A DNA stretch of 64,000 bases. Origin: Blastocatellia bacterium. GTDB lineage: Bacteria > Acidobacteriota > Blastocatellia > UBA7656. The notes beneath the pieces were generated by a model. The model was not told where the DNA came from and did no database searches. It worked only from the letters and a program-made list of their open reading frames with translations. A program made the position numbers and the translations under genes. Shown one piece after another: positions 17,932-53,286 of the stretch; position 1 is the stretch's first letter, and each line of letters begins with the position of its first letter. The stretch lies in NCBI GenBank assembly GCA_963728545.1, contig CAVSKO010000002.1, forward strand, positions 358,874 through 422,873, written 5' to 3'.

Positions 17932-19899
17932 GTGGCTGTAATGTTGAGACTCAAAACATCTCACCGCAGAGACACAGAGAGCACAGAGGGGGCGCAGAGA
18001 AAACCAACCTCTGCTCTGCGCCCCCTCTGTGCTCTCTGTGTCTCTGCGGTGAGTCTTCTTGTAATAACCTTTTCTACGATTATCGCTGGTGCGCAGACCG
18101 CCGAAGAGTTCCGGGCGGAATTTCATCAGACGTATCCTCTCGCCGCGACAGGGCGGATCAACGTGAAGAATGTTTCGGGCGCTGTCCGCATCATCGCGTG
18201 GGACCGCAACGAGGTAAAGCTGGATGCAGTAAAGACTGCGCAGTCGAAAGAGAGTCTCGACGAAGCGGAGATCAAAGTAGAAGCCACCGCAAACGCCATT
18301 CAAATCCGTACCAGCTATCCTAATGATTGTTGCTTTTACTCGGAGGAGTGCTGCGAGAAGCGGTTTTATAGAAGCCGCGAATCCCGGCTCGCCTCGGTCG
18401 AATATAGCCTGATGGTCCCGCGAAATGCTCGCTTGGAATCCGTCGAAGTCATAAAGGGCAACGTGAAGATTGACGGCCTTTCAGGCTCTATCAATGCTTC
18501 CACGGTCATCGGCGAGGTTGACGCAAAACTTAATCGGCTCGCAGATTCTAATTCGATCACTTTAAGCTCGCTTACGGGCGGCATTCTTTTAACCATTCCT
18601 TCTGACTCGCACGCCATTGTGATCGCGCGGTCGCTTTCCAGCGAAATAACTAATGATTTCGGGCTGACGATAAATCGCGGGGAGTTCATCGGTCGCAACA
18701 TCGCGGGCCGACTCGGACGAGGCGGCGCGCGAGTGACGCTCGATAATATCACGGGCACTATCGCCGTCCGCCGCCTTTCGGACGGGCGCACGCCGAGCGC
18801 CGCGACGAACGTCAATCCTCAAACGGTGAGAGGCGAGACAGAGGCTAACCAGACTCTCGCTCGCCGCATAGTCGCGAGGGCGCGGCAACAGGCTCAACAG
18901 GCCGTCAACAATTCGGTCGATATTTCTCAAGCAATGCGCGATGTGCGGCGCGAGGTCGCTCGCGCGATGCGCGAAAGCTTGCCGATAGCCATCAGCATAG
19001 CAGTGCCGCAGATAGTCATAACTCCTGCGCCGGAAGCTAGAGTGCAGCCGCCTCGCGCTACTCGTGCGCCTCGCCCACCTCGCCCACCACGCTCGACACC
19101 ACCGGAAGCTCCGTCAACGCCGTCCCCGACGCCGACTCCAACAGCGCCTCGTGCCGAGCCGATCTATTTTAGAGTTAACGAGACGGAATCGAAATCTTTT
19201 ACCTTGAGCGGTGTCAGTCGTATCAACCTCGACACCTTCGACGGCCCGATAACGGTTCGCGCCTGGGACAAACAAGAGGTGTTGATAACGGCTACGAAAA
19301 AAGCCCGCGATGAAGAGGCGATGCGCAGTGCGCGAGTTCGGTTCGAGCAGCGCGCGGGAGAGGTCGTGGCAATTGCCCGATTCGATGATCCGGCAGGCGA
19401 GCGCGATAGCGCGGATGCCCAGGTCCATCTCGACGCATTCGTTCCGCGAAAAGCAAATCTCCGCCTCGCGACGAGCGACGGCAGGCTCTTTGTCGAAGGC
19501 GTGTCGGGCGAAATGGAACTGCGCACCGATGATGGAGAGATACGAGTAGCAAACGGGGCGGGCCGTCTGCGCGCCAACACAAGCGACGGCCAGGTTCAGG
19601 TCACGAAATTCAACGGCGACGTCGACGCTCGGACAAATGACGGGCAGATACTGTTGGAGGGACGTTTCAATTCTCTGAGCGCGCGAACGGGCGACGGAAC
19701 CATAACACTATCTCTTCCGGCAAGCTCTAACGCGACGATAGAGACTGCCGCCGAATCGATCATCATAGACGGTCTCAGAGTGACTGAAGAGGGCGATTCT
19801 GCGAGCCGGTTGAGACGTTGGAAAGTAGGCGCGGGCGGGACGGTCTTTTCGCTTCGCACAGGAGACGGGCGAATCGTGTTGCGCCGGTCGGGCGCATGA
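17932..19899 (+). CDS. two-module DUF4097 repeat protein with Pro/Thr-rich linker (start uncertain; 5' end overlaps palindromic repeat copy A)
   Basis: Two DUF4097-like repeat regions separated by PPRATRAPRPPRPPRSTPPEAPSTPSPTPTPTAPR. Confidence 0.65.
   Translation: MAVMLRLKTSHRRDTESTEGAQRKPTSALRPLCALCVSAVSLLVITFSTIIAGAQTAEEFRAEFHQTYPLAATGRINVKNVSGAVRIIAWDRNEVKLDAVKTAQSKESLDEAEIKVEATANAIQIRTSYPNDCCFYSEECCEKRFYRSRESRLASVEYSLMVPRNARLESVEVIKGNVKIDGLSGSINASTVIGEVDAKLNRLADSNSITLSSLTGGILLTIPSDSHAIVIARSLSSEITNDFGLTINRGEFIGRNIAGRLGRGGARVTLDNITGTIAVRRLSDGRTPSAATNVNPQTVRGETEANQTLARRIVARARQQAQQAVNNSVDISQAMRDVRREVARAMRESLPIAISIAVPQIVITPAPEARVQPPRATRAPRPPRPPRSTPPEAPSTPSPTPTPTAPRAEPIYFRVNETESKSFTLSGVSRINLDTFDGPITVRAWDKQEVLITATKKARDEEAMRSARVRFEQRAGEVVAIARFDDPAGERDSADAQVHLDAFVPRKANLRLATSDGRLFVEGVSGEMELRTDDGEIRVANGAGRLRANTSDGQVQVTKFNGDVDARTNDGQILLEGRFNSLSARTGDGTITLSLPASSNATIETAAESIIIDGLRVTEEGDSASRLRRWKVGAGGTVFSLRTGDGRIVLRRSGA
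17951..18060. repeat. palindromic intergenic repeat, copy A (~40-bp arms ctcaccgcagagacacagagagcacagagggggcgcagag / reverse complement, loop aaaaccaacc)
   Basis: Near-perfect inverted repeat read directly; homologous copies at ~41899..41992 and ~53182..53286. Confidence 0.8.
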
Positions 19900-20224
19900 C
19901 AGAAAGATCGCTTTTCTTGTTAACGGATCGTCACGGGGTCGCGTCTTAAAAAGTGGAGTTGGGCGCAAAAACGAATAGTCGCAGGGTCGGGTAATCTGAA
20001 ACTGACATCAAGTTTTTATGACTCGCGGGCGCTTTTACTTTTAAAGGCCGCGCCCGAAAAGATGGGGCTTGCGCGTGAGCCTGAAAGAGATTCAAAAAAA
20101 TAATGTTTATTCAAACAAATGGAACATTTATCCGCGCTCGCTCGTCTAAAAAAAAGGCACTTTTGATGCTCTCATTCAATAATTAATTTGAGAAGGCGCG
20201 GATCGGATAAGCAGTTGGGGTTCA

Positions 20225-22708: not shown

Positions 22709-22717
22709 TTAGTGGTC

Positions 22718-22770
22718 GGGGCTTAGAGGCTAGAGATCAAAGATCAGGGACTCGCCTCTAAGCTCTGACC
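22718..22770 (+). terminator. imperfect 17-bp stem-loop after DUF5916 paralog 1
   Basis: ggtcggggcttagaggc ... gcctctaagctctgacc read directly; no clear T-run. Confidence 0.35.
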
Positions 22771-26654: not shown

Positions 26655-26760
26655 GACTTAAAAGGAGACGGGGAGAAAGACACGGAGAGAGGGGACGCGG
26701 CGACGCGGCTGAGGATTACCCAATCTCTGTGTCCCCGTCTCTCTGTGTTGCCGTACTGCT
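26655..26760. repeat. degenerate relative of the palindromic repeat family (copy B)
   Basis: Shares cacagagag / ctctgtg and gagacgggga / tccccgtctc motifs but arms only partly complementary. Confidence 0.3.
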
Positions 26761-27199: not shown

Positions 27200-28942
27200 A
27201 TGTCGGCTAAACTGGGCGAGACCCTTCTAAAAGATAATCTAATCACACCTCAGCAGCTCAAAGAAGCGCTCGACTTTCAGAGAGTCAACGGTGGAAGGCT
27301 CGCCTCTACCCTCGTAAGACTCGGAATGCTTTCCGATGAAGAGGTCACGGCAGTCTTGAGCCGCCAGTACGGCGTCCCTTCCGTAAACCTCGACCTTTTT
27401 GAAGTCGATCAGGCCGCAGTCGCCCTTGTGCCGCAAGAGACGGCCGAGCGTTACTCGGTGCTGCCGCTGTCTCGCGTAGGCGCGACGCTCACGCTAGCGA
27501 TGGTCGATCCCACAAACGTCTTTGCCATAGACGACATAAAATTTATGACGGGCCTTTCGGTCGAGCCTGTCGTAGTCTCTGAGACGACACTCAATGCCGC
27601 GATAAAGAAATACTACGGCACGACGCGCGAGATGGAGCTTGCGCGCGTGATGGAAGACCTGGTCGCGGAGACGACGAACAAAAACCCTTACGGCGAAGAC
27701 ATCGACCAGCTTGACATCGAAGAGCACGAAGAGGAGATCGACCTCGAAAACCTCGAAAGGATGGCCGAGGATGCGCCCGTAGTAAAACTCGTAAACGTCA
27801 TCCTCGTAGACGCGCTCCGCCGGGGGGCATCCGACATTCATATCGAGCCTTACGAAAAAGAGTTTCGCGTTCGCTTCCGCATGGACGGCGTGCTTTACAA
27901 CATAATGGCTCCGCCTCTGAAGATGCGTGACGCGCTCACGTCGCGAATGAAGATCATGGCCCGGCTCGACATAGCCGAAAAGCGGCTTCCACAAGATGGC
28001 CGCATAAAGATCAGAGTTCGGCTCGACGGGCGCTCGCGCGAGCTGGATTTCCGCGTATCAACATTGCCCACTATCTTTGGCGAAAAGATGGTGCTTCGCC
28101 TGCTTGATAAAGAGAATCTGCGGCTCGACATGACTCAGTTAGGCTTTGAGGCCGCGAGCCTGGATAAGTTCAAGCGGAACATCTCGAAGCCTTACGGGAT
28201 GGTGCTGGTCACGGGGCCGACGGGTTCCGGAAAAACGTCTACGCTTTACTCGGCGCTGCAAAGCCTGAACACGCCGGAAACGAACATAATGACTGCGGAA
28301 GACCCGGTCGAGTTCAACCTGCCCGGCATAAACCAGGTGCAGATGAAAGAATCGATAGGGCTGAATTTCGCGGCCGCGCTCCGCTCATTCTTGCGCCAGG
28401 ACCCGAACATCATTCTCGTCGGCGAAATCCGAGACTTCGAGACGGCAGAGATCGCGGTCAAAGCCGCTCTGACCGGCCACCTCGTGCTTTCCACCCTGCA
28501 CACAAACGACGCGCCTTCGACTATCAGCCGGTTGATGAACATGGGTATCGAGCCCTTTCTTGTCGCAACTTCTGTGAACTTGATCCAGGCGCAGCGACTT
28601 GTGCGAAGAATTTGTAAAGAGTGCAAAGCCGAGCACCACGCCCCGGCAGAGGCCATGATCGACGTGGGATTCCCGGCCGCCGAGGTCAAAGAGATAAAGA
28701 CGTTCAAAGGCATAGGATGTGGAAATTGTAATGGTACTGGCTACAAGGGCCGAGTCGGTCTTTATGAAGTTATGGAGATAACCGACGAGATACGCGAGTT
28801 GATTCTGGTCGGCGCGTCGGGCTTGGAGCTACGCCGCAAGGCCATTGACGAAGGTATGTTGACGCTCCGCCAGAGCGGGCTTGAGAAGATCAGGCAAGGA
28901 TTGACTACGGTAGAGGAAGTCGTGAGAGAAACAGTTAAGTGA
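27200..28942 (+). CDS. pilB: type IV pilus assembly ATPase PilB (GspE family)
   Basis: N-terminal GSPII_E_N domain, Walker A VTGPTGSGKTST, Asp/His boxes, C-terminal tetracysteine CKECK...CGNCNGTG. Confidence 0.9.
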   Translation: MSAKLGETLLKDNLITPQQLKEALDFQRVNGGRLASTLVRLGMLSDEEVTAVLSRQYGVPSVNLDLFEVDQAAVALVPQETAERYSVLPLSRVGATLTLAMVDPTNVFAIDDIKFMTGLSVEPVVVSETTLNAAIKKYYGTTREMELARVMEDLVAETTNKNPYGEDIDQLDIEEHEEEIDLENLERMAEDAPVVKLVNVILVDALRRGASDIHIEPYEKEFRVRFRMDGVLYNIMAPPLKMRDALTSRMKIMARLDIAEKRLPQDGRIKIRVRLDGRSRELDFRVSTLPTIFGEKMVLRLLDKENLRLDMTQLGFEAASLDKFKRNISKPYGMVLVTGPTGSGKTSTLYSALQSLNTPETNIMTAEDPVEFNLPGINQVQMKESIGLNFAAALRSFLRQDPNIILVGEIRDFETAEIAVKAALTGHLVLSTLHTNDAPSTISRLMNMGIEPFLVATSVNLIQAQRLVRRICKECKAEHHAPAEAMIDVGFPAAEVKEIKTFKGIGCGNCNGTGYKGRVGLYEVMEITDEIRELILVGASGLELRRKAIDEGMLTLRQSGLEKIRQGLTTVEEVVRETVK

Positions 28943-29036
28943 TTTTAGATTTTTGATTTTGGATTAAGGATTGCGCGCCGACCCATCAGAGCTTCGGTCC
29001 CACAATACAAAATCTAGAATCCAAAATCTAAAATCG
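28941..29036 (+). terminator. AT-rich imperfect hairpin between pilB and pilT (gattttagatttt... / ...aaaatctaaaatc), GC-rich loop
   Basis: 13-bp perfect + extended imperfect stem read directly. Confidence 0.4.
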
Positions 29037-29047
29037 CCGGAGGTTAT

Positions 29048-30221: not shown

Positions 30222-30362
30222 AAAGGATGAAGTATGAGGGATGAAGGATGAAAAAGAAACAAGCCTCGGTTCTGAAATCTGAGATTTGCGATTTTAAATC
30301 CGCGCCGCGCGCAAGCGCATCATGCGCCATATTCATCCTTCATCCCTCATACTTCATCCTTT
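30222..30362. repeat. 31-bp perfect inverted repeat (aaaggatgaagtatgagggatgaaggatgaa) flanking a 79-nt spacer, directly 3' of pilT
   Basis: Arms 30222..30252 and 30332..30362 are exact reverse complements. Confidence 0.8.
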
Positions 30363-31643: not shown

Positions 31644-31650
31644 TTTGTTA

Positions 31651-31740
31651 GTCAGTTGTCCGTAGTCAGTTGTTTATCGGTTATTTTATAACTTTAGACG
31701 ACGGACAACGGTCTACGGACAACTGACTACGGACAACTGA
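31651..31740 (+). terminator. 23-bp perfect-stem hairpin (gtcagttgtccgtagtcagttgt / acaactgactacggacaactgac) between pilC and pilS, ending 1 nt before pilS ATG
   Basis: Read directly; arms contain tandem acggacaac motifs. Confidence 0.5.
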
Positions 31741-31741
31741 C

Positions 31742-35244: not shown

Positions 35245-35300
35245 GATCATTACAATGGTTTTCGAACAAGCAGGGCGATTTTATGTTCAAGGAGATGGTT

Positions 35301-35726
35301 ATGAAAAGTGAGCGTGGCTTTTCGTTGATAGAGCTTTTAGTAGTAGTCGGCATTCTTATGATAATTTCGGCGATAGCTATACCGGGGCTTCGCAAAGCAA
35401 GGAATAATGCTAACTCAGGATCGGCGATACAATCGCTCAGAACGCTTACGACAGCCGAACACTTATACGAGAGAAGGTTCCATCAATACGCCACGTTAGC
35501 CCAACTTGTGCCCGAAGGCACGATTGATACTCATCTCGGAACAGGATTGAAGAGCGGTTACAGTTTCACGCTGACTCTGAGCGCAGGAAACCAGAATTTT
35601 TCCTGCACAGCAACGCCACTTGATGATCCTCCTAACATGCCCCATTACTTTGTCGATCAGACCGGCGTCATCCGTTACAACGACGGTGCGCCTGCCAATG
35701 CATCAAGCTCTCCGATACCGAGGTAG
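35301..35726 (+). CDS. type IV pilin (prepilin, N-terminal GFSLIELLVV methylation motif)
   Basis: Leader MKSERG|FSLIELL, Glu+5; RBS aaggag 6 nt upstream; track start 35283 is 6 codons earlier. Confidence 0.8.
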   Translation: MKSERGFSLIELLVVVGILMIISAIAIPGLRKARNNANSGSAIQSLRTLTTAEHLYERRFHQYATLAQLVPEGTIDTHLGTGLKSGYSFTLTLSAGNQNFSCTATPLDDPPNMPHYFVDQTGVIRYNDGAPANASSSPIPR

Positions 35727-35871
35727 GACCATCCGTTTCTGACAAAAAGTGGTAATGATTTCTAACGCAATTTGTTAGGAAAAGTCTATGAAAAGAGCGC
35801 CTCGAATCCAGGATTCTAGAAAGCTTGTTTGCTCACAACAGTTTCCTGCGACCATTCCGATTTAGAACACA

Positions 35872-35887
35872 TGGCACAAGCGTTGCC
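35872..35887 (+). promoter_or_regulatory. sigma-54 promoter (TGGCAC-N5-TTGCC) upstream of pilin 2
   Basis: Consensus -24/-12 elements ~90 nt upstream of ATG 35978. Confidence 0.6.
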
Positions 35888-35977
35888 GTTATCAAGCTTG
35901 AGATTAAAGTTAGTTTGGCCGCTGAGGACAACATTGCCTACGGCGAGACAAAAGAAAAAAGGAGCAAAAGGAGCATT

Positions 35978-36463
35978 ATGAAGAAAGAGAACGGATTTTC
36001 ACTGATAGAGCTGCTGATAGTGGTAGCCATCATAGGCATCATCGCCGCTATCGCAATCCCGAATTTGCTTAAGTCCCGACAGGCGGCCAACGAGTCGTCA
36101 GCCATTGGATCGGTTCGCACGTTGGGTACGGCGCAAGCAACTTACCAATCTACTCGCGGTCGAGGTAAAGACTTCGCGGTCTCTCTGGCTGCAATGAACA
36201 CGGAAGGCTTGATCGACTCAGCGTTGTCGAGCGGTGCCAAGAGCGGCTTCGCGTTCACGTGCGTAGGCGTGGCAGCGACTGCAACAGCACCGTCGTACTT
36301 TGACAGCTCGGCTCAGCCGCAATCGTCCGGTACGTTCGGAACAGGCAACAGGTCATTCTATTCGAACGAGACGTTTGTGATATATGCATTGGATGGCGGT
36401 ACAGCGCCGACAGCGGCATTCCCGGTGAGGGTGCCTGCTGCACCTGCCTTACCGATTGAATAG
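35978..36463 (+). CDS. pilA: type IV pilin, tandem duplicate copy 1 (161 aa; track ORF 35825 over-extended)
   Basis: MKKENG|FSLIELLIVVAIIGIIAAIAIPNLL; RBS aaggag; differs from copy 2 at 5 of 161 residues. Confidence 0.8.
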   Translation: MKKENGFSLIELLIVVAIIGIIAAIAIPNLLKSRQAANESSAIGSVRTLGTAQATYQSTRGRGKDFAVSLAAMNTEGLIDSALSSGAKSGFAFTCVGVAATATAPSYFDSSAQPQSSGTFGTGNRSFYSNETFVIYALDGGTAPTAAFPVRVPAAPALPIE

Positions 36464-36490
36464 AACCTCTATCAATCTGGTTGAGTGTGA

Positions 36491-36531
36491 AACGGGCGAG
36501 CCGCCAAAAAGGCTTGCCCGTTCTTTTTTTT
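36491..36531 (+). terminator. Rho-independent terminator after pilin 2 (stem aacgggcgagcc/ggcttgcccgtt + T8)
   Basis: GC stem followed by ttcttttttttattt. Confidence 0.8.
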
Positions 36532-36685
36532 ATTTAAAGAAATTTATGTGTCTCAATTGAAATTGAACAAAAAATGGCATTCATCACTTAACGAAATTTG
36601 GGAATGATAACCTGCCGCCAACTGTTTTCAAAAAGCTTTTCTTTAAGAGACACCAGTTAAAACAAGAGCGACTTTCTATTTCGCG

Positions 36686-36701
36686 TGGCACAGCCTTTGC
36701 C
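36686..36701 (+). promoter_or_regulatory. sigma-54 promoter (TGGCAC-N5-TTGCC) upstream of pilin 3
   Basis: Consensus -24/-12 ~90 nt upstream of ATG 36792. Confidence 0.6.
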
Positions 36702-36791
36702 AATGCTAGTAACGCGATCTGTCGTAGTTCGGCCGCTAGGGACAAAACGACCTACGGCGAGACAAAAGAAAAAAGGAGCAAAAGGAGCATT

Positions 36792-37277
36792 ATGAAGAAA
36801 GAGAACGGATTTTCACTGATAGAGCTGCTGATAGTGGTAGCCATCATAGGCATCATCGCCGCTATCGCAATCCCGAATTTGCTTAAGTCCCGACAGGCGG
36901 CCAACGAGTCGTCAGCCATTGGATCGGTTCGCACGTTGGGTACGGCGCAAGCAACTTACCAATCTACTCGCGGTCGAGGTAAAGACTTCGCGGTCTCTCT
37001 GGCTGCAATGAACACGGAAGGCTTGATCAACTCAGCGTTGTCGAGCGGCAACAAGAGCGGTTTCACATTCACGTGCGTAGGCGTGGCGGCGACTGCAACA
37101 GCACCGTCATACTTTGATGCCTCAGCGCGTCCGCAATCGTCCGGAACATTTGGAACAGGCAACAGGTCATTCTATTCGAACGAGACGTTTGTGATATATG
37201 CATTGGATGGCGGTACAGCGCCGACAGCGGCATTCCCGGTGAGGGTGCCTGCTGCACCTGCCTTACCGATTGAATAA
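36792..37277 (+). CDS. pilA: type IV pilin, tandem duplicate copy 2 (161 aa)
   Basis: Identical to copy 1 except D/N, A/N, A/T, S/A, Q/R in the central region; identical 45 nt upstream incl. RBS. Confidence 0.8.
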   Translation: MKKENGFSLIELLIVVAIIGIIAAIAIPNLLKSRQAANESSAIGSVRTLGTAQATYQSTRGRGKDFAVSLAAMNTEGLINSALSSGNKSGFTFTCVGVAATATAPSYFDASARPQSSGTFGTGNRSFYSNETFVIYALDGGTAPTAAFPVRVPAAPALPIE

Positions 37278-37307
37278 GTCGGATTATCAATAGATCAACT
37301 GATCATA

Positions 37308-37350
37308 AAACGGGTGAGCCTTTCCGAGGCTCACCCGTTTGTGTTATAGT
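37308..37350 (+). terminator. stem-loop terminator after pilin 3 (aaacgggtgagcc / ggctcacccgttt)
   Basis: 13-bp perfect stem, followed by T-rich tract. Confidence 0.65.
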
Positions 37351-37469
37351 TTCTTCATCAGCTCATAAATTATGCGGAACCGTTCAGGGTCGCCCGCGTT
37401 CGACTTTGTAAGAGAGCACAAAGCTTTACCCTATTCGGGGAAGCTCAATCTGGAGCTGAGGAGAGTACT

Positions 37470-37952
37470 ATGAAGAAGAGACAAGAGCGAGGTTTTTCGC
37501 TTATCGAGTTGCTTATCGTGGTTGCCATTATCGGTATTATCGCCGCACTCGCAATTCCCAGCTTGTTGAAATCTCAACAGGCAGCTCGCGAGACGGCTGC
37601 AATCGGTGAAGTCTCGGCTATTGGCAAAGCGCAAGTGACTTACCAGATGACAAAGGGTCGCGGGAAATTCGGGACGCTTGCACAGCTTGGTGAAGACGGC
37701 GGGCTTAATGCCGCGTTAGCATCCGGCACAAAGAGCGGTTATCTTTACACTTCTGATCCTGTCGTTGTCGAGGGATTGCCCGGGATGTACGACACGACTG
37801 CGAAACCCAGTTCAACGGGGAAATTCGGAACGGGCAATATTTCCTATTACTCTAATGAGTCTAATACTATTTACGAAGCAGAAGGCGGGACGCCGCCTAC
37901 GTGCACTCCGCAAGACCGCATTCCAAAAGACGGTCAGATCATAACAAGGTAA
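37470..37952 (+). CDS. type IV pilin, divergent paralog (160 aa)
   Basis: MKKRQERG|FSLIELLIVVAIIGIIAALAIPSLL; RBS gaggag. Confidence 0.8.
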   Translation: MKKRQERGFSLIELLIVVAIIGIIAALAIPSLLKSQQAARETAAIGEVSAIGKAQVTYQMTKGRGKFGTLAQLGEDGGLNAALASGTKSGYLYTSDPVVVEGLPGMYDTTAKPSSTGKFGTGNISYYSNESNTIYEAEGGTPPTCTPQDRIPKDGQIITR

Positions 37953-40078: not shown

Positions 40079-40963
40079 ATGCAACTGCTTGAAATTGATA
40101 GCATCTATATTGCGAGGACAATGGCTACCACTGAAATCACAAGGCAGCAGGTCGCCGGGCCGATGTTTAACTTGAGGCCGGGAATGCGCGCGAAGATCGC
40201 CGCAATAGCGATCAACACGTTCCGCGAATCGGTCCGCGACCGCGTGCTCTACAATTTGATACTGTTTGTTTTGATCCTGATTGGCGCGTCCGTCTTTGTC
40301 AGCGAGCTTTCAATTGACCAGGAGAGCAAGTTCATAATGGACCTGGGGTTGAGTTTGATGCTCGTATTCGGCGCGCTTATAGCAATCTTCATAGGCGTCG
40401 GCCTCGTCTTCAAAGAGATAGACAAGCGCACGATCTATAATCTGCTTTCAAAGCCTGTCCACCGGTATGAATTCATAATAGGAAAGTTCTTCGGGCTATG
40501 CATGACGCTGTTAGTCAATTGCGTCGTGATGGTCATCGGAATTGAGCTGGCCTTGATGTACGTAAACGGCGGGTTCGTCTCGTTGCAGTTGACGCTTTTG
40601 CCGGCGGCCTATTTGATCTTCCTTGAGCTTATGCTTGTGGTCGCGGTCGCGCTTATGTTTTCCAGCTTTTCAACGCCTATGCTTGCTGCGCTCTTTACAT
40701 TCGCGGTCTATGTCATAGGCCATTTCAGCCCCGATTTGCGACTTGCCGCCGAGTTGACCGATTCTGCGGTGACTCGCGTTGTGCTGATAGCGCTTTATTA
40801 TTTGCTGCCGAACCTGTCGAATTTTAGTTTTATCAGCGAAGCCTCGCGCGGCAAGATCGTTCCTCTCTCAATGGCTTTGTCGGCTACCGTCTATGCGATC
40901 ATATATGCGAGCATATTGCTATCCGCCGCCGCTTTGATTTTTCAGAAACGGAATTTTAAGTGA
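40079..40963 (+). CDS. ABC-2-type transporter permease-like integral membrane protein (no cognate ATPase adjacent)
   Basis: 6 predicted TM helices with ABC-2 family pattern; start may be 40121. Confidence 0.5.
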   Translation: MQLLEIDSIYIARTMATTEITRQQVAGPMFNLRPGMRAKIAAIAINTFRESVRDRVLYNLILFVLILIGASVFVSELSIDQESKFIMDLGLSLMLVFGALIAIFIGVGLVFKEIDKRTIYNLLSKPVHRYEFIIGKFFGLCMTLLVNCVVMVIGIELALMYVNGGFVSLQLTLLPAAYLIFLELMLVVAVALMFSSFSTPMLAALFTFAVYVIGHFSPDLRLAAELTDSAVTRVVLIALYYLLPNLSNFSFISEASRGKIVPLSMALSATVYAIIYASILLSAAALIFQKRNFK

Positions 40964-41889
40964 TTATGAAACGCGCGATACCAATAGTCATAATCATCGC
41001 GGGGTTTTGCCTGCTTTATCCATTGCAGCGCTGGATCGACTCATCCACTCCACGCGAATCGACAAACGAAGAGAACCTCTATTTCTCTTCCGGCGAATTG
41101 ATAAAGAAGATGAGCCTGGGCCTGGATGGGCTTGCCGCAGACATATACTGGATAAGAACAGTTCAATACTTTGGGCGCAAGCTGATCGATAGCCGCGCAC
41201 CCGGCGAGCCGCCGTCCTTTGGAAGCACCAAAGAGATTCGTATGGAATTGCTTGCCCCGCTGCTCGATATTATTGTCACGCTCGACCCTCAACATATTTC
41301 GGCTTACAGATTCGGAGCGATCTTTTTGCCGGAGCGCGATCTGGCGGCTGCCATAAAATTGCTTGAGCGCGGCATCGCCGCCAATCCGAACGAATGGAGG
41401 CTCTATCAAGACCTGGCCTACATTTACTGGCAGGCGGGAAACCAGGCGAAGGGGGAAGAGAAGGCGGGTTATTATGCGAAAGCCGCCGATTGGTACGAGC
41501 GTGGCAGCCGAGTCGAAGGCGCGCGCGATTGGATGGCCGACATGGCCGGAGTGATGAGGATACAAGGCGGCGAGCGCGCGACGGCTCGGAAAATCTATGA
41601 AGAGTATGCAAAGAGTGAAGAGACGAACATACGCAATCAGGCGGCGGCCAGATTAAAACAGCTCGACTCGCTAGATCAGATCGATAAGATCAACGAAGAG
41701 TTGCGCAAGAGAGTCGAGCAGACCGGACAATGCCCGGCGAGCTTGCGATTGCTTGCGAGAGAGCTTTATTCAAAAGAGCTGACGTTGAATATAGAAATGT
41801 CGCCCGTTAACCCGGAAGGCTTTCCGTATGCACTCAACGCGGCAACCTGTCGGGCAGAGCTTGATAAACAATTGACTATTCCGCGCTGA
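40960..41889 (+). CDS. hypothetical membrane-anchored protein with TPR-like helical repeats
   Basis: N-terminal TM anchor MIMKRAIPIVIIIAGFCLLY; alpha-helical repeat-rich; 4-nt overlap with upstream gene. Confidence 0.4.
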   Translation: MIMKRAIPIVIIIAGFCLLYPLQRWIDSSTPRESTNEENLYFSSGELIKKMSLGLDGLAADIYWIRTVQYFGRKLIDSRAPGEPPSFGSTKEIRMELLAPLLDIIVTLDPQHISAYRFGAIFLPERDLAAAIKLLERGIAANPNEWRLYQDLAYIYWQAGNQAKGEEKAGYYAKAADWYERGSRVEGARDWMADMAGVMRIQGGERATARKIYEEYAKSEETNIRNQAAARLKQLDSLDQIDKINEELRKRVEQTGQCPASLRLLARELYSKELTLNIEMSPVNPEGFPYALNAATCRAELDKQLTIPR

Positions 41890-41898: not shown

Positions 41899-41992
41899 TC
41901 AAAACATCTCACCGCCGCAGAGGCGCAGAGCAGATGTTGGTTTTCTCTGCGCCCCCTCTGTGTTCTCTGTGTCTGCGGCGGTGAATCTTTTT
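41899..41992. repeat. palindromic intergenic repeat, copy C (deletion variant)
   Basis: catctcaccgccgcagaggcgcagag...ctctgcgccccctctgtgttctctgtgtctgcggcggtgaatctt; between convergent genes. Confidence 0.75.
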
Positions 41993-42004: not shown

Positions 42005-42832
42005 TTAAGAATGCTGCTGGCTCTTCAGGTCTATCGTTACGGTAGCGCCTGAAGTCTTTATCCTGGCTCGAACAGGCGTGCGCTTTTCGTCGTCGGTCAC
42101 CCAGATAAACATCTGGCCGCTGCGTTTCACATAACGCCCGTCAAAGACTTTTGCGTCCAGCAAAATCGTCTTGAACTTGATCGAGTTGACCTTAATCTCT
42201 TCGCGACGGCCTACGACGACTTCGATGTTATACACCTGGCCGCTGTCGCTTATGGGCACCTGGATCACATCGCCCTGGTTGAGCTTCTGAGTCCGAACGA
42301 AATATGTAGCCGATAAAATATCTTGAATCCACGAAGGCGAGCTTGCCTCTTTTACGTTTGCCGTTCCCGCGCTTTTCGACAGGTCTCTGTCTATGTAAGT
42401 CACGCGACCGGCCTCGCGGTCGATAACTGCTTTCTGCTCGCGCCGCGTCGCCCCTTCCTCGATCTGTTTGGTTGAGGTGTGAAGCCCTAGATCATTTGTG
42501 CTGACCATCGAATGAAATCGGTCCCTGACTTTGATGCCGAACAGCTTCGGGAAAAGACCTTTTGAGACGGCTTCTGCTTTAAGCTCTATCAAGTCAGATT
42601 GCTGCGGCTCGGTAGGCTTTGACACCCAGAGCTTCAGCTCGCCGATAGTGCCTGAGAAGATCAGTTTTGAGAAATTTATTTCATAAGTAAGCGTCTCGCC
42701 GACCTTGAATGGAAGCGGTTGAGTAATTTTCGGAGCGGTGACGGCAGCGACCTTGTCCGACGCGACCTGCCCGAAGCCCACGGATGCGCCCTGAATCAAA
42801 ACCATCAATACGATTAATAGCTTCTTAATCAT
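42005..42832 (-). CDS. secreted DUF3108-like protein
   Basis: Signal peptide; beta-rich 275-aa protein resembling DUF3108 family common in Acidobacteria/Bacteroidetes. Confidence 0.45.
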   Translation of the reverse strand: MIKKLLIVLMVLIQGASVGFGQVASDKVAAVTAPKITQPLPFKVGETLTYEINFSKLIFSGTIGELKLWVSKPTEPQQSDLIELKAEAVSKGLFPKLFGIKVRDRFHSMVSTNDLGLHTSTKQIEEGATRREQKAVIDREAGRVTYIDRDLSKSAGTANVKEASSPSWIQDILSATYFVRTQKLNQGDVIQVPISDSGQVYNIEVVVGRREEIKVNSIKFKTILLDAKVFDGRYVKRSGQMFIWVTDDEKRTPVRARIKTSGATVTIDLKSQQHS

Positions 42833-43492: not shown

Positions 43493-43501
43493 ATTTATTC
43501 A

Positions 43502-43563
43502 GTGATGAGTAATGACTGATGAGTGAAAAACAGAGTGCCGATACTCATTACTCATTACTCATC
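43502..43563 (-). terminator. imperfect hairpin (agtgatgagtaatga... / ...tcattactcatcact) between minus-strand genes
   Basis: 15-bp perfect + imperfect extension, AT-rich, repeat-like arms. Confidence 0.35.
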
Positions 43564-44617
43564 ACTCCAATCTCCTTGATATTGCGTCTATCACTTCGCC
43601 TGCCGGGATGTCCATACACTCCCAGTGCCAGCAGCTACGACGATAACAATCTGTGCGGCACCACAAATCTCTGCCGACAGTGATATCTCTACTATCAAAC
43701 GGGCCGTTGCGCTCAGGCGAGGTCGGCCCGTAAAGCCCGACTATTGGCGTGCCTGCGGCTGCGGCGAGATGAAGCGGGCCGGTATCGCCTCCGACAAAGA
43801 GACGCGCTCGCCGCGCCAACGCAACAAACTGCTTCAGAGTTGACGGCGTAGGGTGAGCCGCATTTGATCGCGAGCTTGCGCGAACGGCCTCAGCCATCGC
43901 CTCTTCGCCCGGCCCGTAGGTGACTATGGAATTGATCGCGCGGTTAGTTGAAAGCCAATCTGCAACCTCGCCATATCGCTCGACAGGCCAGAGCTTTGTC
44001 GGCCAGCCTCCGCCGGGATTGATAATTGCGAACGGGCTTCCGACGCGAGTCATCACGCGGTCGGCATATTCGTCATCCTCCGGCGAAACATAAATCGGGA
44101 ATTCGTACCGAGACTTAAGCGGTTTTTCGTTATTGATGAGGCTTTCGGCGAGCGCGAGATTTTTTTCGATGACGTGTTTTACCTGTGCGGTCTCTACTTG
44201 CTCGGTGAGGAAAAACCGGCTCGCTTTTTCCCGCAGCTCGCGGGTTTCAAACCCGATACGGCGGACGGCCCCTGTCGCCAGCGCGACTACGCCGGATTTG
44301 ATCAGTCCTTGAAAATCTATAGCAACATCAACCGGGCTCACGCCCGCTCCGTTATTGCTCGCGCCCGTACGCGCCTGCTCGATCTTGCTGCGTATGTCTT
44401 GGAGAGTTGCTTTACTAATCACATTCTTTCGCCACTCGCGAGTATCTATCTCGATCAGCTTGTTTATGACGGGCGAGCCTTTGAGAATCTCGCCGGCACG
44501 CCGCTCGACTATCCACGAGATGTGAGCTTCGGGCAACGCTCGCCTGACGAGGGCCGCTGCCGGGAGCGTGTGGACCACGTCGCCTATAGAGCTGAGCTTG
44601 ACGATTAAAATTCGCAT
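43562..44617 (-). CDS. ADP-heptose:LPS heptosyltransferase (glycosyltransferase family 9)
   Basis: N-terminal MRILIVKLSSIGDVVHTLPA; GT9 C-terminal GxDTGxxHLAAA motif. Confidence 0.8.
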   Translation of the reverse strand: MRILIVKLSSIGDVVHTLPAAALVRRALPEAHISWIVERRAGEILKGSPVINKLIEIDTREWRKNVISKATLQDIRSKIEQARTGASNNGAGVSPVDVAIDFQGLIKSGVVALATGAVRRIGFETRELREKASRFFLTEQVETAQVKHVIEKNLALAESLINNEKPLKSRYEFPIYVSPEDDEYADRVMTRVGSPFAIINPGGGWPTKLWPVERYGEVADWLSTNRAINSIVTYGPGEEAMAEAVRASSRSNAAHPTPSTLKQFVALARRARLFVGGDTGPLHLAAAAGTPIVGLYGPTSPERNGPFDSRDITVGRDLWCRTDCYRRSCWHWECMDIPAGEVIDAISRRLE

Positions 44618-44749
44618 CCTAGCCGGTTTAGATAATTATCGAATAAATCGCGAAGCGGAATTATAGCATTAGCCCGCGTCGGGCCGTTAGCCGCCATTCT
44701 TTGAAATGGCGCGTGTAGCGTGTTAAAATCGCTTTCGCTCATTCGAGTT

Positions 44750-45919
44750 ATGAAAAACATTAGCATACTTGGATCGACCGGCTCGATCGGTAAAAACACC
44801 TTATCCGTAATCGACTCCCTCCGCGAAAGATTTTCAGTCAGCGCCCTGGCCGCAGGTCGTGACCTGGATGGGCTGGCTCGCCAGATTGCGCGATTCCAAC
44901 CTCGACTCGTATCGGTGGCAGCCGAGAGCGACATCCCTGAGCTGACAAAGAGGCTGCGTGACGCGGGCGTAAGCCGCATGCCGGAGATTGTCTTCGGCGA
45001 CAGAGGGCTGGTCGAAGTGGCCTGCGTCTCGGATGCCGAGATAGTCGTCTCCGCTACGGTCGGCGCTGTCGGGTTTCTGCCCACTTACAAAGCGCTGCAA
45101 CTTGGCCGCCGCGTCTGTCTCGCGAATAAAGAGACTCTCGTTATGGCCGGGGAGTTGATGACGCGAGCAGCACGTGAAGCGGGAGCCGAGTTGCTCCCAG
45201 TAGATAGCGAGCATAATGCCCTTCATCAATGCCTGCGCGGAGAACGTACCAGCGAAGTAAAGCGATTGATATTGACCGCGTCGGGCGGGCCTTTTCGCGA
45301 AACTTCACTGGCCGATATGAAGCGGGCGAGTGTCGAGCAGGCGCTCGCGCACCCGACCTGGCAGATGGGGGCAAAGATCACTATCAATTCTGCCACGCTC
45401 ATGAACAAAGGGCTTGAAGTTATGGAAGCGGGCTGGCTTTTCGGGTTTTCAGCCTCCGAGATAGCCGTGATGGTTCACCCGCAATCGATAGTTCATTCCA
45501 TGATCGAGATGATCGATGGCTCGATCATCGCTCAACTGGGCGTGACCGACATGCGATTGATGATTCAATACGCGCTCACCTATCCGGAGCGCCTGGTGAC
45601 CGAGTTGCCGCAACTCGGAATCGAGCGACTTTCACGTCTGGAGTTTTTTGAGCCTGATTTTGAAAGATTTCCATGCCTCAGACTCGCTTATGACGCTATG
45701 CGCGAAGGCGGCACGATGCCTGCCGCATTGAGCGCGGCAAACGAAGTGGCGGTGGCCCGGTTTCTTGATAAGAAGATCGCTTTTATGGATATTCCTCGCG
45801 TGATAGCCGATACGATGGACGCACACGACACACGTCCCTGCTCTAGCATCGAGGCTATTCTTGAAGCCGACGGCTGGGCGCGGGCACGAGCATCGAAAGT
45901 CCTGAGTGCCGAGTCCTGA
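44750..45919 (+). CDS. dxr: 1-deoxy-D-xylulose 5-phosphate reductoisomerase
   Basis: MKNISILGSTGSIG NADPH motif; conserved DSEH/ NKG segments; dxr-rseP synteny. Confidence 0.9.
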   Translation: MKNISILGSTGSIGKNTLSVIDSLRERFSVSALAAGRDLDGLARQIARFQPRLVSVAAESDIPELTKRLRDAGVSRMPEIVFGDRGLVEVACVSDAEIVVSATVGAVGFLPTYKALQLGRRVCLANKETLVMAGELMTRAAREAGAELLPVDSEHNALHQCLRGERTSEVKRLILTASGGPFRETSLADMKRASVEQALAHPTWQMGAKITINSATLMNKGLEVMEAGWLFGFSASEIAVMVHPQSIVHSMIEMIDGSIIAQLGVTDMRLMIQYALTYPERLVTELPQLGIERLSRLEFFEPDFERFPCLRLAYDAMREGGTMPAALSAANEVAVARFLDKKIAFMDIPRVIADTMDAHDTRPCSSIEAILEADGWARARASKVLSAES

Positions 45920-45962
45920 GTAAAAACATGAGCACAGTGTTTTGGTTTCCCACTCAGGACTT
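45911..45962 (+). terminator. 10-bp perfect stem-loop (gagtcctgagt / actcaggact) overlapping dxr stop, before rseP
   Basis: Read directly. Confidence 0.4.
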
Positions 45963-46088
45963 AGAAAGCTCATAGACACCCTCATCGCACTAAGATAAAC
46001 TTAAAGTTGTATATCGGTCTGACGAATTTGCGTGCATGCTAACAGGCCGTTGAGTTGTGGCTCTATTTGATCTGAAGGAGAATTTGCC

Positions 46089-47504
46089 GTGATAGGCGTA
46101 CTCGTTTTTATTCTTGTTCTAGGCGGGATGATCGTAATTCATGAATTTGGCCATTTCATAGTAGCTAAATTATTCGGAATCCGTGTTGAGGTCTTCAGCA
46201 TAGGCTTCGGCAAGCGGCTCTTCGGGGTTAAGAAAGGTGACACGGACTATCGCCTCAGCTTGATACCGCTGGGCGGATACGTGAAGATGGCGGGCGAGAA
46301 CCTGGACGAGCAGAGGACAGGCGCGCCCTACGAGTTTATGTCAAAGCCGAGGTGGCAGCGATTTCTTGTCGCCGTTGCCGGGCCGGCTATGAATATACTG
46401 ACGGCCATTGCCATTATTGCTATCCTCGCGATGATCCATTTCGAGACCGAGGCTTACAGGACGTGGCCCGCGCAGGTCAATGCAGTCGAGCCGGGCTCTC
46501 CCGCGGATAAGGCGGGCATACGGCGAGGCGACTTGATCCTTAAGATAGATGGTGAAGAGAACCCGCTCTGGCGCGATGTCGAAGACTCCATTCTCGTCAA
46601 TCCCGGTCAGACCATCCCTGTCACGGTTAAACGAGGCGATCAGATTATAGACCTCACTTTACCTGTAGCATCGCGCCCCTTCGAGCAAGAAGAGATAGGT
46701 TATGCCGGGTTCAAGCCCGATATCGGCTCCGACGCCAAGCTCATAGTAAAAAACATCGGCAAGGATAAACCGGGCGCGCAGGCGGGACTACTGCCGGCCG
46801 ATCAAATAGTCGCAGTCAACGGCAAGCCTGTCGAGCAAAGCCCTTATGGCAACCTTGATGTGATCACCGCCATACGCGCGAGCAACGGGCAGCCCGTGAC
46901 GTTGACCGTCAAGCGCGGCGACCAGACGCTCGATATAACGGCAGCGCCTCAGATGGATGACGGCGAGTATCGAATCGGGTTCGAGCCTGACCTGATCAAC
47001 GTTCAGAAAATAGTCACGAAATTGGGGCCAATCGAAGCGATTAAGTTTTCACTTCAAGAGAACAAGCGAATACTGAAGCTGACCTGGAAGGCCATCTCTC
47101 AGATGTTCGCCGGACAGCGCTCGCCTGGAAAAACTCTTACAGGCCCGATTGGCATACTCGGCATAACTCAGGAAGCGACCGAGCGCGGCGCGTGGTCCGT
47201 CCTTAATCTGATGGCTCTGTTGTCGCTCAATCTGGGCATATTCAACCTCCTGCCGATTCCGGTGCTCGACGGCGGGTTGATCTTCATGCTCATACTGGAA
47301 TCAGTCCTCGGCCTGTTCGGCATACCGCTTTCCTTGCGCGTCAAAGAGCGCATGATGCAGGTCGGGTTCGTAGTCTTGATACTGCTGATGGGATTTGTGA
47401 TATTCAACGACATAGCCAAAAAAATTCCGGGCAGCAACGTGGTCCAGCAACAGCAACAACAGCAGCAACAGAACGCGCCCCAAAAAGAGGGCGAGCAGCC
47501 TTAG
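46089..47504 (+). CDS. rseP: RIP metalloprotease RseP (site-2 protease, M50) with PDZ domains and poly-Gln C-terminal tail
   Basis: HEFGHFIVAKLFG zinc motif, two PDZ domains, LDGG motif; ends VQQQQQQQQQNAPQKEGEQP. Confidence 0.9.
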   Translation: MIGVLVFILVLGGMIVIHEFGHFIVAKLFGIRVEVFSIGFGKRLFGVKKGDTDYRLSLIPLGGYVKMAGENLDEQRTGAPYEFMSKPRWQRFLVAVAGPAMNILTAIAIIAILAMIHFETEAYRTWPAQVNAVEPGSPADKAGIRRGDLILKIDGEENPLWRDVEDSILVNPGQTIPVTVKRGDQIIDLTLPVASRPFEQEEIGYAGFKPDIGSDAKLIVKNIGKDKPGAQAGLLPADQIVAVNGKPVEQSPYGNLDVITAIRASNGQPVTLTVKRGDQTLDITAAPQMDDGEYRIGFEPDLINVQKIVTKLGPIEAIKFSLQENKRILKLTWKAISQMFAGQRSPGKTLTGPIGILGITQEATERGAWSVLNLMALLSLNLGIFNLLPIPVLDGGLIFMLILESVLGLFGIPLSLRVKERMMQVGFVVLILLMGFVIFNDIAKKIPGSNVVQQQQQQQQQNAPQKEGEQP

Positions 47505-51317: not shown

Positions 51318-51335
51318 GTTTCTTATGCAAGCTCT

Positions 51336-51381
51336 TAAGCGGCGCAATTCAATAGCTCAGGCTATGGGATTGCGCCGCTTC
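51336..51381 (+). terminator. stem-loop after subtilase 2 (aagcggcgcaat / attgcgccgctt)
   Basis: 12-bp perfect stem. Confidence 0.5.
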
Positions 51382-51454
51382 GAGCTTTCTTCTAAATAAC
51401 ATAGACAGGGGTTTCGCCTTATTGTAAGATTGCCGTCATCCTGATCGCCCTTTT

Positions 51455-51796
51455 ATGGCTGAGGAATCATTAATGAATCAAGGCAGGACCGCAGGACAAG
51501 CAGACGCGCTGATCGACCTCTTAAAATCCTCGCTCACGGCTGAAGGCGCGCAGGCTTTCGGCCACCTCGTTCTTTACACCTCGTTCGGAGTTGTGCGCGG
51601 GCGCATCGGGCTTACTTTCGCTCAGTTATTAATCGGAGCCGAAAACGGTGTAAATACGGACTCCTCCATGCTGGAAGTCATTGAGCTAAACGACGCAACG
51701 GTCGAACACTACTCAAATCACCTTCCTACGGCCAGCTTCAACAGGATGTACGTGCGGCTCGCCAACGTGCACGGCTTCGCAATGGTAGATTCGTAA
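51455..51796 (+). CDS. hypothetical protein
   Basis: 113-aa ORF, no recognised motif. Confidence 0.3.
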   Translation: MAEESLMNQGRTAGQADALIDLLKSSLTAEGAQAFGHLVLYTSFGVVRGRIGLTFAQLLIGAENGVNTDSSMLEVIELNDATVEHYSNHLPTASFNRMYVRLANVHGFAMVDS

Positions 51797-51895
51797 ACCC
51801 TCCGCAACGTGCGCTCCTCTCTGAGGCAAATCTCTTAAGTTGTGCTACACTGGGCTGACGCTTGTATATCCGCTCGCCACCAGAAGGAGATGCCT

Positions 51896-52303
51896 ATGCT
51901 AAAGAAAATCACCACATTGACGGTAGCCCTTTTGCTAGCTTTTACGTTGATCGGTCAAAGACAGGTTGTCGCAAGCTCAAAGGCCGAGAGGGATGTTAAG
52001 TACATCGAAAAGGTAAAGGCGGGAATACTCAAGCTAGGCGTAGGACAGCAATCGCGCGTCACCATAAAGATGCGGGATAAGACAAAGCTGGTCGGTTATA
52101 TCAGCGAAATTCAAAACGAACATTTCGTCGTGTCCGATATAAACTCTTCTTCGACGATGACTATTGCTTACACAGACGTTTCCCAGGTGAAGGGCAATAA
52201 TCTCTCGACCGGCGCAAAAGTCGCGATAGGCGTGGGGATCGCCGTTGCGGTCATCATTATTCTCTATTCGGTTCGCGGGGCTTTTTGCGACGGCCAGTGC
52301 TGA
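51896..52303 (+). CDS. small secreted/membrane-anchored hypothetical protein (signal peptide + C-terminal TM)
   Basis: RBS aaggag 6 nt upstream of ATG; MLKKITTLTVALLLAFTLIG signal; C-terminal VAIGVGIAVAVIIILY. Confidence 0.4.
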   Translation: MLKKITTLTVALLLAFTLIGQRQVVASSKAERDVKYIEKVKAGILKLGVGQQSRVTIKMRDKTKLVGYISEIQNEHFVVSDINSSSTMTIAYTDVSQVKGNNLSTGAKVAIGVGIAVAVIIILYSVRGAFCDGQC

Positions 52304-52322
52304 AGTTCCGCGCTGAAAAAGC

Positions 52323-53162
52323 ATGACCGATTATCTCAGCTATCGAAACGACCTCGACGACCCGGCGCTCGCCTCAGTCTTTGATGAGCTGTCTTTCTGG
52401 TCATCCAGGTTCGGCGCGTTGCTGCTCAATAACATGGAGCTTCGCCGCAACCTGAAGATTTTGGACCTCGGCTGCGGCAATGGGTTTCCCTCTTTCGAGA
52501 TGGCAAATCTTTTAGGCGCTTCCTGTCACATAACCGGCATGGATATATGGCGCGAAGGTCTAAACAGAGCCAGGTACAAACAGCGATTCTATCAACTCCC
52601 CAACCTGACTATCCTTGAAGCGGACGGCGCAAGAATGCCGTTTCGGAATTCCACGTTTGATGTGATCGTCTCTAACCTCGGTGTGAATAACTTTGCCGAC
52701 CCCGCGCCTGTTCTGGCCGAGTGCCTTCGGGTCGCGCGCGCGGTCGGAACGCTCTACCTGACGACCAATGTCAAAGGCCATTTCGCGCAGTTTTATACAG
52801 TATTTCGCGATGTTCTGGGCGAACTGAATAAGACCATTTACCTTGATCGCCTGGATGCTAACGAGATGCACAGAGGCACGAAAGAGTCTTTAACCGGACT
52901 TCTACACGACGCGGGTTTCAATGTGAACAGGGTGATTGAAGATAGCTTTGACATGCGCTTCCTGGATGGCAGCGCATTGTTGAATCACTCTTTGACAAAG
53001 ATAGGGTTCCTTGACGGTTGGCGTGCCGTCGTCAGCCCGGATGATGAGAGAGTCGTTTTCCAGAGAATTGAAGAACGGCTGAACGAAGCGGCAGAGCGAA
53101 GTGGAGAGTTGCGGATGACTGTCCCGATGCTTTTTATCGAAGCGAAAAAGCCGGATTTATAA
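52323..53162 (+). CDS. class I SAM-dependent methyltransferase
   Basis: Motif I ILDLGCGNGFPS; motif II/III DVIVSNLGVNNF. Confidence 0.75.
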   Translation: MTDYLSYRNDLDDPALASVFDELSFWSSRFGALLLNNMELRRNLKILDLGCGNGFPSFEMANLLGASCHITGMDIWREGLNRARYKQRFYQLPNLTILEADGARMPFRNSTFDVIVSNLGVNNFADPAPVLAECLRVARAVGTLYLTTNVKGHFAQFYTVFRDVLGELNKTIYLDRLDANEMHRGTKESLTGLLHDAGFNVNRVIEDSFDMRFLDGSALLNHSLTKIGFLDGWRAVVSPDDERVVFQRIEERLNEAAERSGELRMTVPMLFIEAKKPDL

Positions 53163-53181
53163 AGTAAGCGCGGGGTATTCC

Positions 53182-53286
53182 GATACATCTCACCGCCGCA
53201 GAGACACAGAGGGGGCGCAGAGAAAACCATATTCTGCTCTGCGCCCGCTCTGTGTTCTCTGTGTCTCTGCGGTGAATCTTCTTGTT
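53182..53286. repeat. palindromic intergenic repeat, copy D
   Basis: catctcaccgccgcagagacacagagggggcgcagag aaaaccatat tctgctctgcgcccgctctgtgttctctgtgtctctgcggtgaatctt; between convergent genes. Confidence 0.8.

Follow-up and report, generated by a model that had tools for sequence, protein, structure and literature searches.

What are the palindromic repeats that lie between the genes of a Blastocatellia bacterium, and how did they come to lie there? The question is raised by 64,000 nucleotides of contig CAVSKO010000002.1 (assembly GCA_963728545.1, positions 358,874 to 422,873), here called the window, the closest relatives of whose proteins are from Blastocatellia. A preliminary description of the window reported three homologous copies of a hairpin of about 100 bp and one degenerate relative, likened them to repetitive extragenic palindromic (REP) elements or miniature inverted-repeat transposable elements (MITEs), and proposed fold energies, further copies in related genomes, and target-site duplications as checks. 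We find that the three copies, A, B, and C, share their arms with larger elements that carry an open reading frame (ORF) of the GxxExxY family between those arms. We argue that they are probably nonautonomous cassettes, built like the intervening sequences (IVSs) of 23S rRNA, whose full form holds the GxxExxY nuclease gene.

Copies A, B, and C occupy positions 17951 to 18060, 41899 to 41992, and 53182 to 53286, with hairpin cores at 17961 to 18052, 41909 to 41984, and 53190 to 53275. An 18-mer of the inner arm, CTCTGCGCCCCCTCTGTG, occurs 5 times in the window against 0.05 expected, and a 19-mer of the outer arm, CTCTGTGTCTCTGCGGTGA, occurs 4 times against 0.01 expected. A covariance model (CM) built from relatives in other genomes matched A, B, and C alone in the window (103 bits, E = 1e-21; 38.7 bits, E = 1e-6; and 68.3 bits, E = 1e-13, respectively). 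RNA fold energies were -91.3, -44.8, and -59.8 kcal/mol (z = -17.0, -6.9, and -7.6). Copy A consists of two 40-nt arms (17960 to 17999 and 18014 to 18053) that are 100% complementary around a 14-nt loop, AAAACCAACCTCTG (18000 to 18013). The near-perfect pairing ascribed to every clear copy thus holds for A but not for B, the 5′ arm of which is short by about 17 nt; the deletion noticed within one arm of C corresponds to one 8-nt unit missing from its 5′ arm. The loop of C is AAAACCATATTCTG, and that of B, CAGATGTTGGTTTT, is the reverse complement of the A/C loop, with the flanks of B oriented as in A and C. These outer flanks are common to all three copies, with acatc as the left flank and (a/g)tctt(c/t)tt as the right one (gtcttcttg in A).

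Each copy begins 19 to 45 nt past a stop codon. Copy A lies 45 nt past the stop of the gene at 17094 to 17915, and the other two lie between convergent genes, at 40960 to 41889 (plus strand) and 42005 to 42832 (minus strand) for B and at 52323 to 53162 (plus strand, methyltransferase) and 53296 to 56034 (minus strand, SpoIIE phosphatase) for C. The intergenic placement described earlier therefore stands, but copy A also falls within the deposited call of the downstream DUF4097 gene (P0241, 652 aa, ATG at 17941). That call starts upstream of the hairpin and translates both of its arms (HRRDTESTEGAQ...SALRPLCALCVSAV); the terminal GGTGA of copy A offers a GTG start at 18049, and a DUF4097 orthologue without hairpin A has an ordinary signal peptide. 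The fourth feature, D (26677 to 26748), is of the CACGGAG type (GACACGGAGAGAGGGGACGCGG ... CTCTGTGTCCCCGTCTCTCTGTG) and was scored at 16.4 bits by the CM (E = 0.15) and at E = 0.006 by a sequence-only profile (nhmmer), with a fold z of -4.3; D is plausibly a decayed relative, its membership weakly supported. Because the loops of A, B, and C are 14 nt long and the window has no ORF of the kind found in larger elements, its copies are of the ORF-less form. We conclude that A, B, and C are one family and are probably ORF-less, or miniature, members of a family of hairpin cassettes.

The arms are short periodic arrays with the layout TCACC-GCAGAG-A-CACAGAG-AG-CACAGAG-GGGG-CGCAGAG. Copies A to C have TCACC ... 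GGTGA ends and 3 to 4 units per arm, each ending C(A/G)C(N)(G/A)AG and spaced 8, 9, or 11 nt. Across 260 arrays in all the fetched sequence, the spacings were 8 nt (n = 188), 9 nt (n = 222), and 11 nt (n = 101), and the commonest units were CGCAGAG, CACAGAG, and CACGGAG. Moreover, pairs of the outer stem covary (GC14/AU4, GC10/AU8, and AU14/GC3). When one genome per GTDB species was scanned for the exact pattern, at least 52 loci were found. Among the 52 matches listed, 33 are the CAGAG hairpin in metagenome-assembled genomes (MAGs) of Blastocatellia/Pyrinomonadaceae, with several per genome; four are look-alikes from Caldilineaceae, Anaerolineales, and a Methanosarcinales archaeon, and the remainder are chance matches. 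The hairpins were found between codirectional, convergent, and divergent genes, typically 0 to 50 nt past the upstream stop codon. A seeming bias in their orientation relative to neighboring genes, taken from CM scores, proved to be a product of the asymmetric search pattern and was dropped. Rfam contained no match at gathering thresholds and, below threshold, only eukaryotic microRNA-precursor hairpins. We conclude that the family is abundant in Acidobacteriota (Blastocatellia/Pyrinomonadaceae).

Two further observations concern the hairpins themselves. The loops of CAGAG hairpins at four loci (L044, 7664 to 7802; L046, 2361 to 2496; L014, 5535 to 5669; and L030, 1599 to 1758) hold another periodic-arm hairpin, and the insert at L044 and L046 is the same GATTTGA/GATTTCA sequence in opposite orientations. 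The terminal GGTGA of all copies supplies both a GTG start and, in another frame, a TGA stop. GGTGA is complementary to the UCACC of the 16S rRNA 3′ tail and might serve as the ribosome-binding site of the next gene, at gaps of about 8 nt.

At two loci, L040 and L051, window-type arms stand about 410 nt apart around an ORF of 134 or 131 aa, the two ORFs being on opposite strands relative to the arms. The ORF matches PF13366 (PDDEXK_3, E = 2.5e-42) and TIGR04256, the "GxxExxY protein" family. A protein-guided metagenome scan returned 80 loci at 55 to 77% identity, with 75 scorable GxxExxY genes. At an inverted-repeat score of 30 or more, arms flanked 55 of the 75 GxxExxY genes and 0 of 61 other ORFs of the same loci, among which the maximum score was 25. 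Every arm of the metagenome genes was of the C(A/G)C(N)(G/A)AG type, the arms within an element matched each other better than they matched those of other elements, and no ORF type other than PF13366 was found between CAGAG-family arms in the fetched loci. The ORF-bearing element had no match in Rfam, even below threshold.

The association extends to named genomes of several groups. In Bacteroides finegoldii, a GxxExxY gene between radA and the gene for an FAD protein has arms TTCACCACAGAGGACGCAGAGGACACGGAG/...GGTGAA; in Bernardetia, the arms are of CACAGAG units; in Gemmatirosa, a CGCAGAG hairpin adjoins the gene; and in Sphingomonas, between fabD and fabG, arm-like repeats occur only upstream of it. 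The GxxExxY family is very large, with 22,478 representatives of 50%-identity clusters at an E value of 1e-3 or less, and has been listed as of unknown function with "multiple transfers" (PMC3424549). The PD-(D/E)xK residues E34, D74, E84, and K86 do not vary within the close subfamily, and there is a weak Cas4 match (E = 0.004). Some database calls of 155 aa include HRRDAENAEVAQRK because the arm is read in frame, and the best-scoring representatives (P0361 to P0371), with 266 to 295 aa and two matched stretches, look like tandem cassettes with in-frame read-through of their arms.

The full element has a median length of 464 nt, with inverted arms of 30 to 45 nt, and its gene fits tightly between them. 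A purine-rich leader of 5 to 25 nt follows the 5′ arm (AGAGAAGACCAT directly before ATG), and 0 to 12 nt separate the GxxExxY stop codon from the 3′ arm (TAG directly followed by TTCTCTGCGC); in some elements, the frame closes only at the TGA of the terminal GGTGA. For full elements with both neighbors callable (n = 26), the median gap to either neighbor was 8.5 nt. Twenty-one of the 26 lay between codirectional genes, with the ORF on the strand of its neighbors in 20 cases and on the opposite strand in 1. Hairpins carrying the gene are a small minority in Blastocatellia loci, about 2 of 35 among the matches listed. Most ORF-less loops measure 14 nt, with the form A(A/G)A(A/C)CATAATTCTG in either of two orientations, and they resemble the leader plus trailer of a full element with the ORF removed. 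The leader of L040 reads AGAAGACCAT up to ATG and its trailer reads TTCTCTG after TAG; the loop of copy C given above is to be set against AAGACCAT before ATG and TTCTCTG after TAG. We conclude from the 20:1 sense placement within operons that the GxxExxY gene rides on host operon transcription.

Presence and absence of the hairpins differ at orthologous sites. At site C, L133 and L134 (86% and 85% protein identity) have the hairpin and its flanks as in the window, with unrelated loops; L135 and L137 (90% and 75%) lack the hairpin, and their two stop codons adjoin each other without a spacer. At site A, the hairpin is present in L149 (88%) and L150 (73%) and absent from L148 (86%). Moreover, the loop in L149 is the reverse complement of the window copy A loop with one mismatch, which shows inversion between the arms. 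These comparisons bear out the initial view of the repeat as a dispersed, structured, and nonautonomous intergenic palindrome. A 3-nt direct repeat, ATC...ATC around B, C, and L001 and GAT...GAT around L026 and L047, was considered as a target-site duplication and is not a convincing one, as its bases are part of the conserved flank (acatc / atcttcttg) and the empty sites show a larger insertion. In L136 (72%), site C holds an unrelated nested palindrome of about 150 nt at 2366 to 2514, ATATTAGCCGGTG...CACCGGCTAATAT enclosing GCGCCCTGGAGGGGCGCAGGA..., and the stop-codon junction is therefore a repeated landing place for hairpins.

The build of the cassette points to a selfish element constructed like the rRNA IVSs. 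The 23S IVS of Coxiella combines heptameric repeats and a terminal stem of 28 bp with an AGAAGA ribosome-binding site and a loop ORF; in vitro, RNase III cuts it out at ends that map within the stem (PMC4990558). Like the 23S IVSs of Coxiella, Leptospira, and Salmonella, which carry an S23p/four-helix-bundle ORF, the cassettes measure about 430 to 490 nt and have an inverted-repeat stem of about 28 to 40 bp made of short tandem repeats. In both, a small ORF fills the loop, the 5′ arm has an AGAAGA-type ribosome-binding site at its inner end, the distribution is patchy, and ORFs decay. Unlike IVSs, they lie between protein-coding genes rather than in rRNA helices (copies A to C adjoin protein genes, and no rRNA was found in the window), their ORF encodes a predicted PD-(D/E)XK nuclease rather than an Avd-like bundle, their units are 8 to 11 nt with a fixed C(A/G)GAG core, and most of their copies are ORF-less and present many times per genome. 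RNase III cleavage is known for IVSs and would extend to the cassettes by analogy.

The reading that we judge probable, that A to C are nonautonomous IVS-like cassettes with the GxxExxY gene in the full form, builds on the shared arms, the association with the gene across phyla, the tight sense placement, gain and loss at orthologous sites, inversion of the loop, and covariation of the arms. On this reading, the cassette would wedge into the few bases between host genes, usually in the sense direction inside operons, and the host would transcribe the nuclease gene, the ribosome-binding site of which abuts the 5′ arm and the stop codon the 3′ arm. The nuclease may supply the DNA break that lets the cassette copy itself, and ORF-less copies may use it in trans, as REPINs (paired REP elements) use the REP-associated tyrosine transposase (RAYT) or MITEs use a transposase. 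RNase III may cut the long stem in the transcript, as it does in 23S rRNA IVSs, and such a cut would detach the insert and leave host mRNAs ending in half-stems. ORF-less copies such as A to C would in that case serve, between genes, as sites of RNA processing or insulation.

Several results weigh against this reading. No GxxExxY gene lies in the 64-kb window. At the filled C sites, 30 to 45 bases are present in addition to the hairpin, which alone is therefore not the inserted unit, and comparison of filled with empty orthologous sites gave no clean target-site duplication, such that this proposed check yielded nothing convincing. The assignment of GxxExxY as a predicted PD-(D/E)XK nuclease is based on Pfam/NCBIfam profiles and motif conservation; an AlphaFold model from a shallow alignment was poor (pLDDT 50), and a sequence search of the PDB returned no solved relative. 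Arm mismatches had no G·U bias on the ORF sense strand (46 versus 46, with 114 transversions), so selection on RNA pairing gets no specific support. Finally, the uniform 14-nt loop fits one amplified deletion derivative and an "empty site" invaded by the gene equally, and thus agrees equally well with the empty hairpin as the primary element and the gene as a later invader.

That last arrangement defines an alternative that we consider unlikely but substantial, in which the empty hairpin comes first, as the repeat proper, and GxxExxY, as a homing-type endonuclease gene, invades its loop. The target of the nuclease would be the conserved 14-nt loop or the palindrome, and the gene would be copied from a filled hairpin with the arms as homology; either gene orientation would be possible because the arms are inverted copies of each other. 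Such a history would account for the ORF sitting exactly at the split of the conserved ORF-less loop, for the two ORF orientations relative to arm asymmetry in L040 and L051, for the scarcity of filled hairpins in Blastocatellia, and for the unrelated loops of orthologous hairpins. As with free-standing homing endonuclease genes, a small nuclease gene splits a sequence of which intact copies also exist, and both filled and empty sites occur; unlike the case for those genes, the "site" is a multicopy palindrome and there is no intron or intein. Homing, however, leaves the spread of empty hairpins to new sites unexplained, the arms travel with the gene across phyla, arms of 35 to 45 bp are short for recombinational repair, and the 20:1 sense bias needs extra selection. 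It is more doubtful still, and in our judgment improbable, that the hairpins are host-selected RNA elements only, acting as terminators or stabilizers of 3′ ends and conserved for their regulation of the flanking genes, with an incidental link to the nuclease gene. Copies just past stop codons, two of them between convergent genes, very stable stems, and short T-rich tracts after some copies are what such a role would lead one to expect, and hairpins of cyanobacterial short tandemly repeated repetitive (STRR) sequences in operons have been proposed as transcript stabilizers (PMC2670836). Yet a terminator scan (short GC-rich stem, loop of 3 to 8 nt, and T-run within 2 nt of the stem) did not flag A, B, or C, which have a 14-nt loop and no T-run within 2 nt of the stem; candidates with the canonical short GC-rich stem and T-rich tail were seen by eye at 37308 to 37340 and 51337 to 51380. 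Moreover, the element is missing from close orthologues, many copies are found within operons just a few bases before the next start codon, arms accompany the gene at 55 of 75 loci against 0 of 61 controls, and the G·U bias is absent. Processing by RNase III is what the nearest experimental analogue, the rRNA IVS, suggests instead.

Mobilization as a REP or REPIN by a RAYT, or descent as a classical MITE from an insertion sequence (IS), is the class of explanation to which the preliminary description had leaned; we now regard it as very improbable. The size, palindromic shape, intergenic location, and multiple copies agree with it, as does a gene flanked by the same repeats in the manner of a RAYT between REPs. 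The flanked gene is PF13366, however, and neither a Y1 nor any other known transposase. A REP unit has a short, conserved GTAG-type head; the cassette has no such head, its ends being TCACC/GGTGA and its arms periodic, and no consistent target duplication, and no IS with these ends was present among the 150 fetched loci. Like the REP/REPIN-RAYT system (PMC3116915), the family consists of dispersed intergenic palindromes of about 100 nt with a gene that plausibly acts in trans, but here the gene is inside the loop of one hairpin and its product is not an IS200-like transposase. Like MITEs, the ORF-less copies are almost all terminal inverted repeat, are shorter than the gene-carrying form with the same ends, and are polymorphic for presence; unlike MITEs, they have no convincing target-site duplication, their parent-like form carries the PD-(D/E)XK gene only and no recognized IS, and the DNA inserted at filled sites exceeds the hairpin. 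Least credible of all is that the hairpins are not copies of one another but formed where they stand, short tandem repeats having slipped and folded back in the way assumed for STRR. Several unrelated periodic-arm hairpins in the window without detectable relatives elsewhere speak for such an origin, and heptamer repeats are overrepresented in bacterial intergenic DNA (PMC4692102). The CAGAG family resembles the STRR of the hupS-hupL spacer (PMC2670836) in its periodic short repeats, its hairpins in operon spacers, and its unknown function, but STRR are true heptamers of many sequences, whereas this family has 8-, 9-, and 11-nt spacing and fixed ends and unit order; no link of STRR to an ORF was found in the literature. 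Unlinked loci and different genera have in common the TCACC/GGTGA ends, the outer flanks (acatc ... atcttcttg), and the 14-nt loop, and their units and spacers follow one order. In-place origin is thereby contradicted for the CAGAG family; the locus-specific hairpins may have arisen in this way.

A second gene family is flanked by arms in the same way. At L063, a PF05635 "23S rRNA intervening sequence protein" gene (E = 6e-37), which also has an Avd-like match, lies between 38-nt arms of GTGACGA heptamers. Similarly, (TAGGGAG)n/(CTCCCTA)n arms surround a four-helix-bundle gene between nrdB and nrdA in Nostoc edaphicum, (AAGGGAA)n arms surround a PF05635 gene in Geminocystis, and a heptamer-armed PF05635 gene lies between cmr2 and cmr3 in Picosynechococcus. 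We conclude that PF05635 four-helix-bundle genes are a second family flanked by arms in the manner of GxxExxY genes.

The window also contains other periodic-arm hairpins. It encodes a pilB-pilT-pilC-pilS operon, the spacers of which (28941 to 29035, 30222 to 30362, and 31649 to 31741) are each almost filled by a different heptamer-armed hairpin, with arms of GATTTTA, GGATGAA, and GTCAGTT/GTCCGTA. The GGATGAA hairpin has 31-nt perfect arms and a 79-nt loop that holds a further heptamer array. None of these spacer hairpins had a significant relative in the 150 fetched loci. At 45888 to 45971, an AGTCCTG/AGTGCTG heptamer hairpin lies between the genes at 44720 to 45919 and 46089 to 47504. Its relatives in three Blastocatellia loci (L036, L027, and L017) scored 35 to 40, compared to 24 or less for shuffled queries, and it alone among window hairpins outside the CAGAG family had significant relatives in the fetched loci. 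We conclude that the AGTCCTG hairpin is a second multicopy hairpin family in the window. A hairpin of AGTGATG-type heptamers at 43501 to 43566, between two minus-strand genes, was tried as kin of the GTGACGA arms of L063 and did not score above shuffled controls.

Repeats of other kinds were also seen. Four consecutive type IV pilin genes with the N_methyl motif occupy 35283 to 37952, and two of them, at 35825 to 36463 and 36792 to 37277, have repeated segments in common, at a distance of 814 nt. About 4 copies of a 93-nt tandem repeat (71 to 77% matches) at 7031 to 7473, inside the minus-strand ORF at 6871 to 8082, are probably a repeated protein module. A perfect 17+17-nt palindrome without spacer, AAAAAATCGCTCTCGAA/TTCGAGAGCGATTTTTT, at 10675 to 10708, between the genes at 10172 to 10561 and 10716 to 13142, looks like a bidirectional terminator.

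Taken more broadly, and tentatively, GxxExxY proteins may be the mobilizing or homing nucleases of hairpin cassettes that hitchhike in operons across phyla. Together with Avd-like cassettes and ORF-less remnants, such cassettes could be the source of much intergenic hairpin DNA with periodic arms, including the cyanobacterial STRR and the hairpins of Acidobacteriota. The long stem would make insertion harmless because RNase III would trim the insert from the host transcript. The IVS-like build and the REPIN/MITE-like population structure are each of a known kind; searches of the literature on GxxExxY, PF13366, PF05635/TIGR02436, and STRR found no earlier description of such cassettes. The finding would give a genomic lifestyle to a very large family of proteins whose listed status is "function unknown," would tie that family to the long-puzzling rRNA IVSs, and would offer a testable origin for abundant intergenic hairpin repeats. 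It bears on annotation, as gene callers read through the arms both in the 155-aa GxxExxY calls and in the 652-aa DUF4097 call, which takes in copy A. As a reagent, a small nuclease that goes with a defined palindromic DNA could also be useful. For the biology of the operons themselves, stems of 30 to 40 bp between genes of the pilB, pilT, and pilC type should shape mRNA processing.

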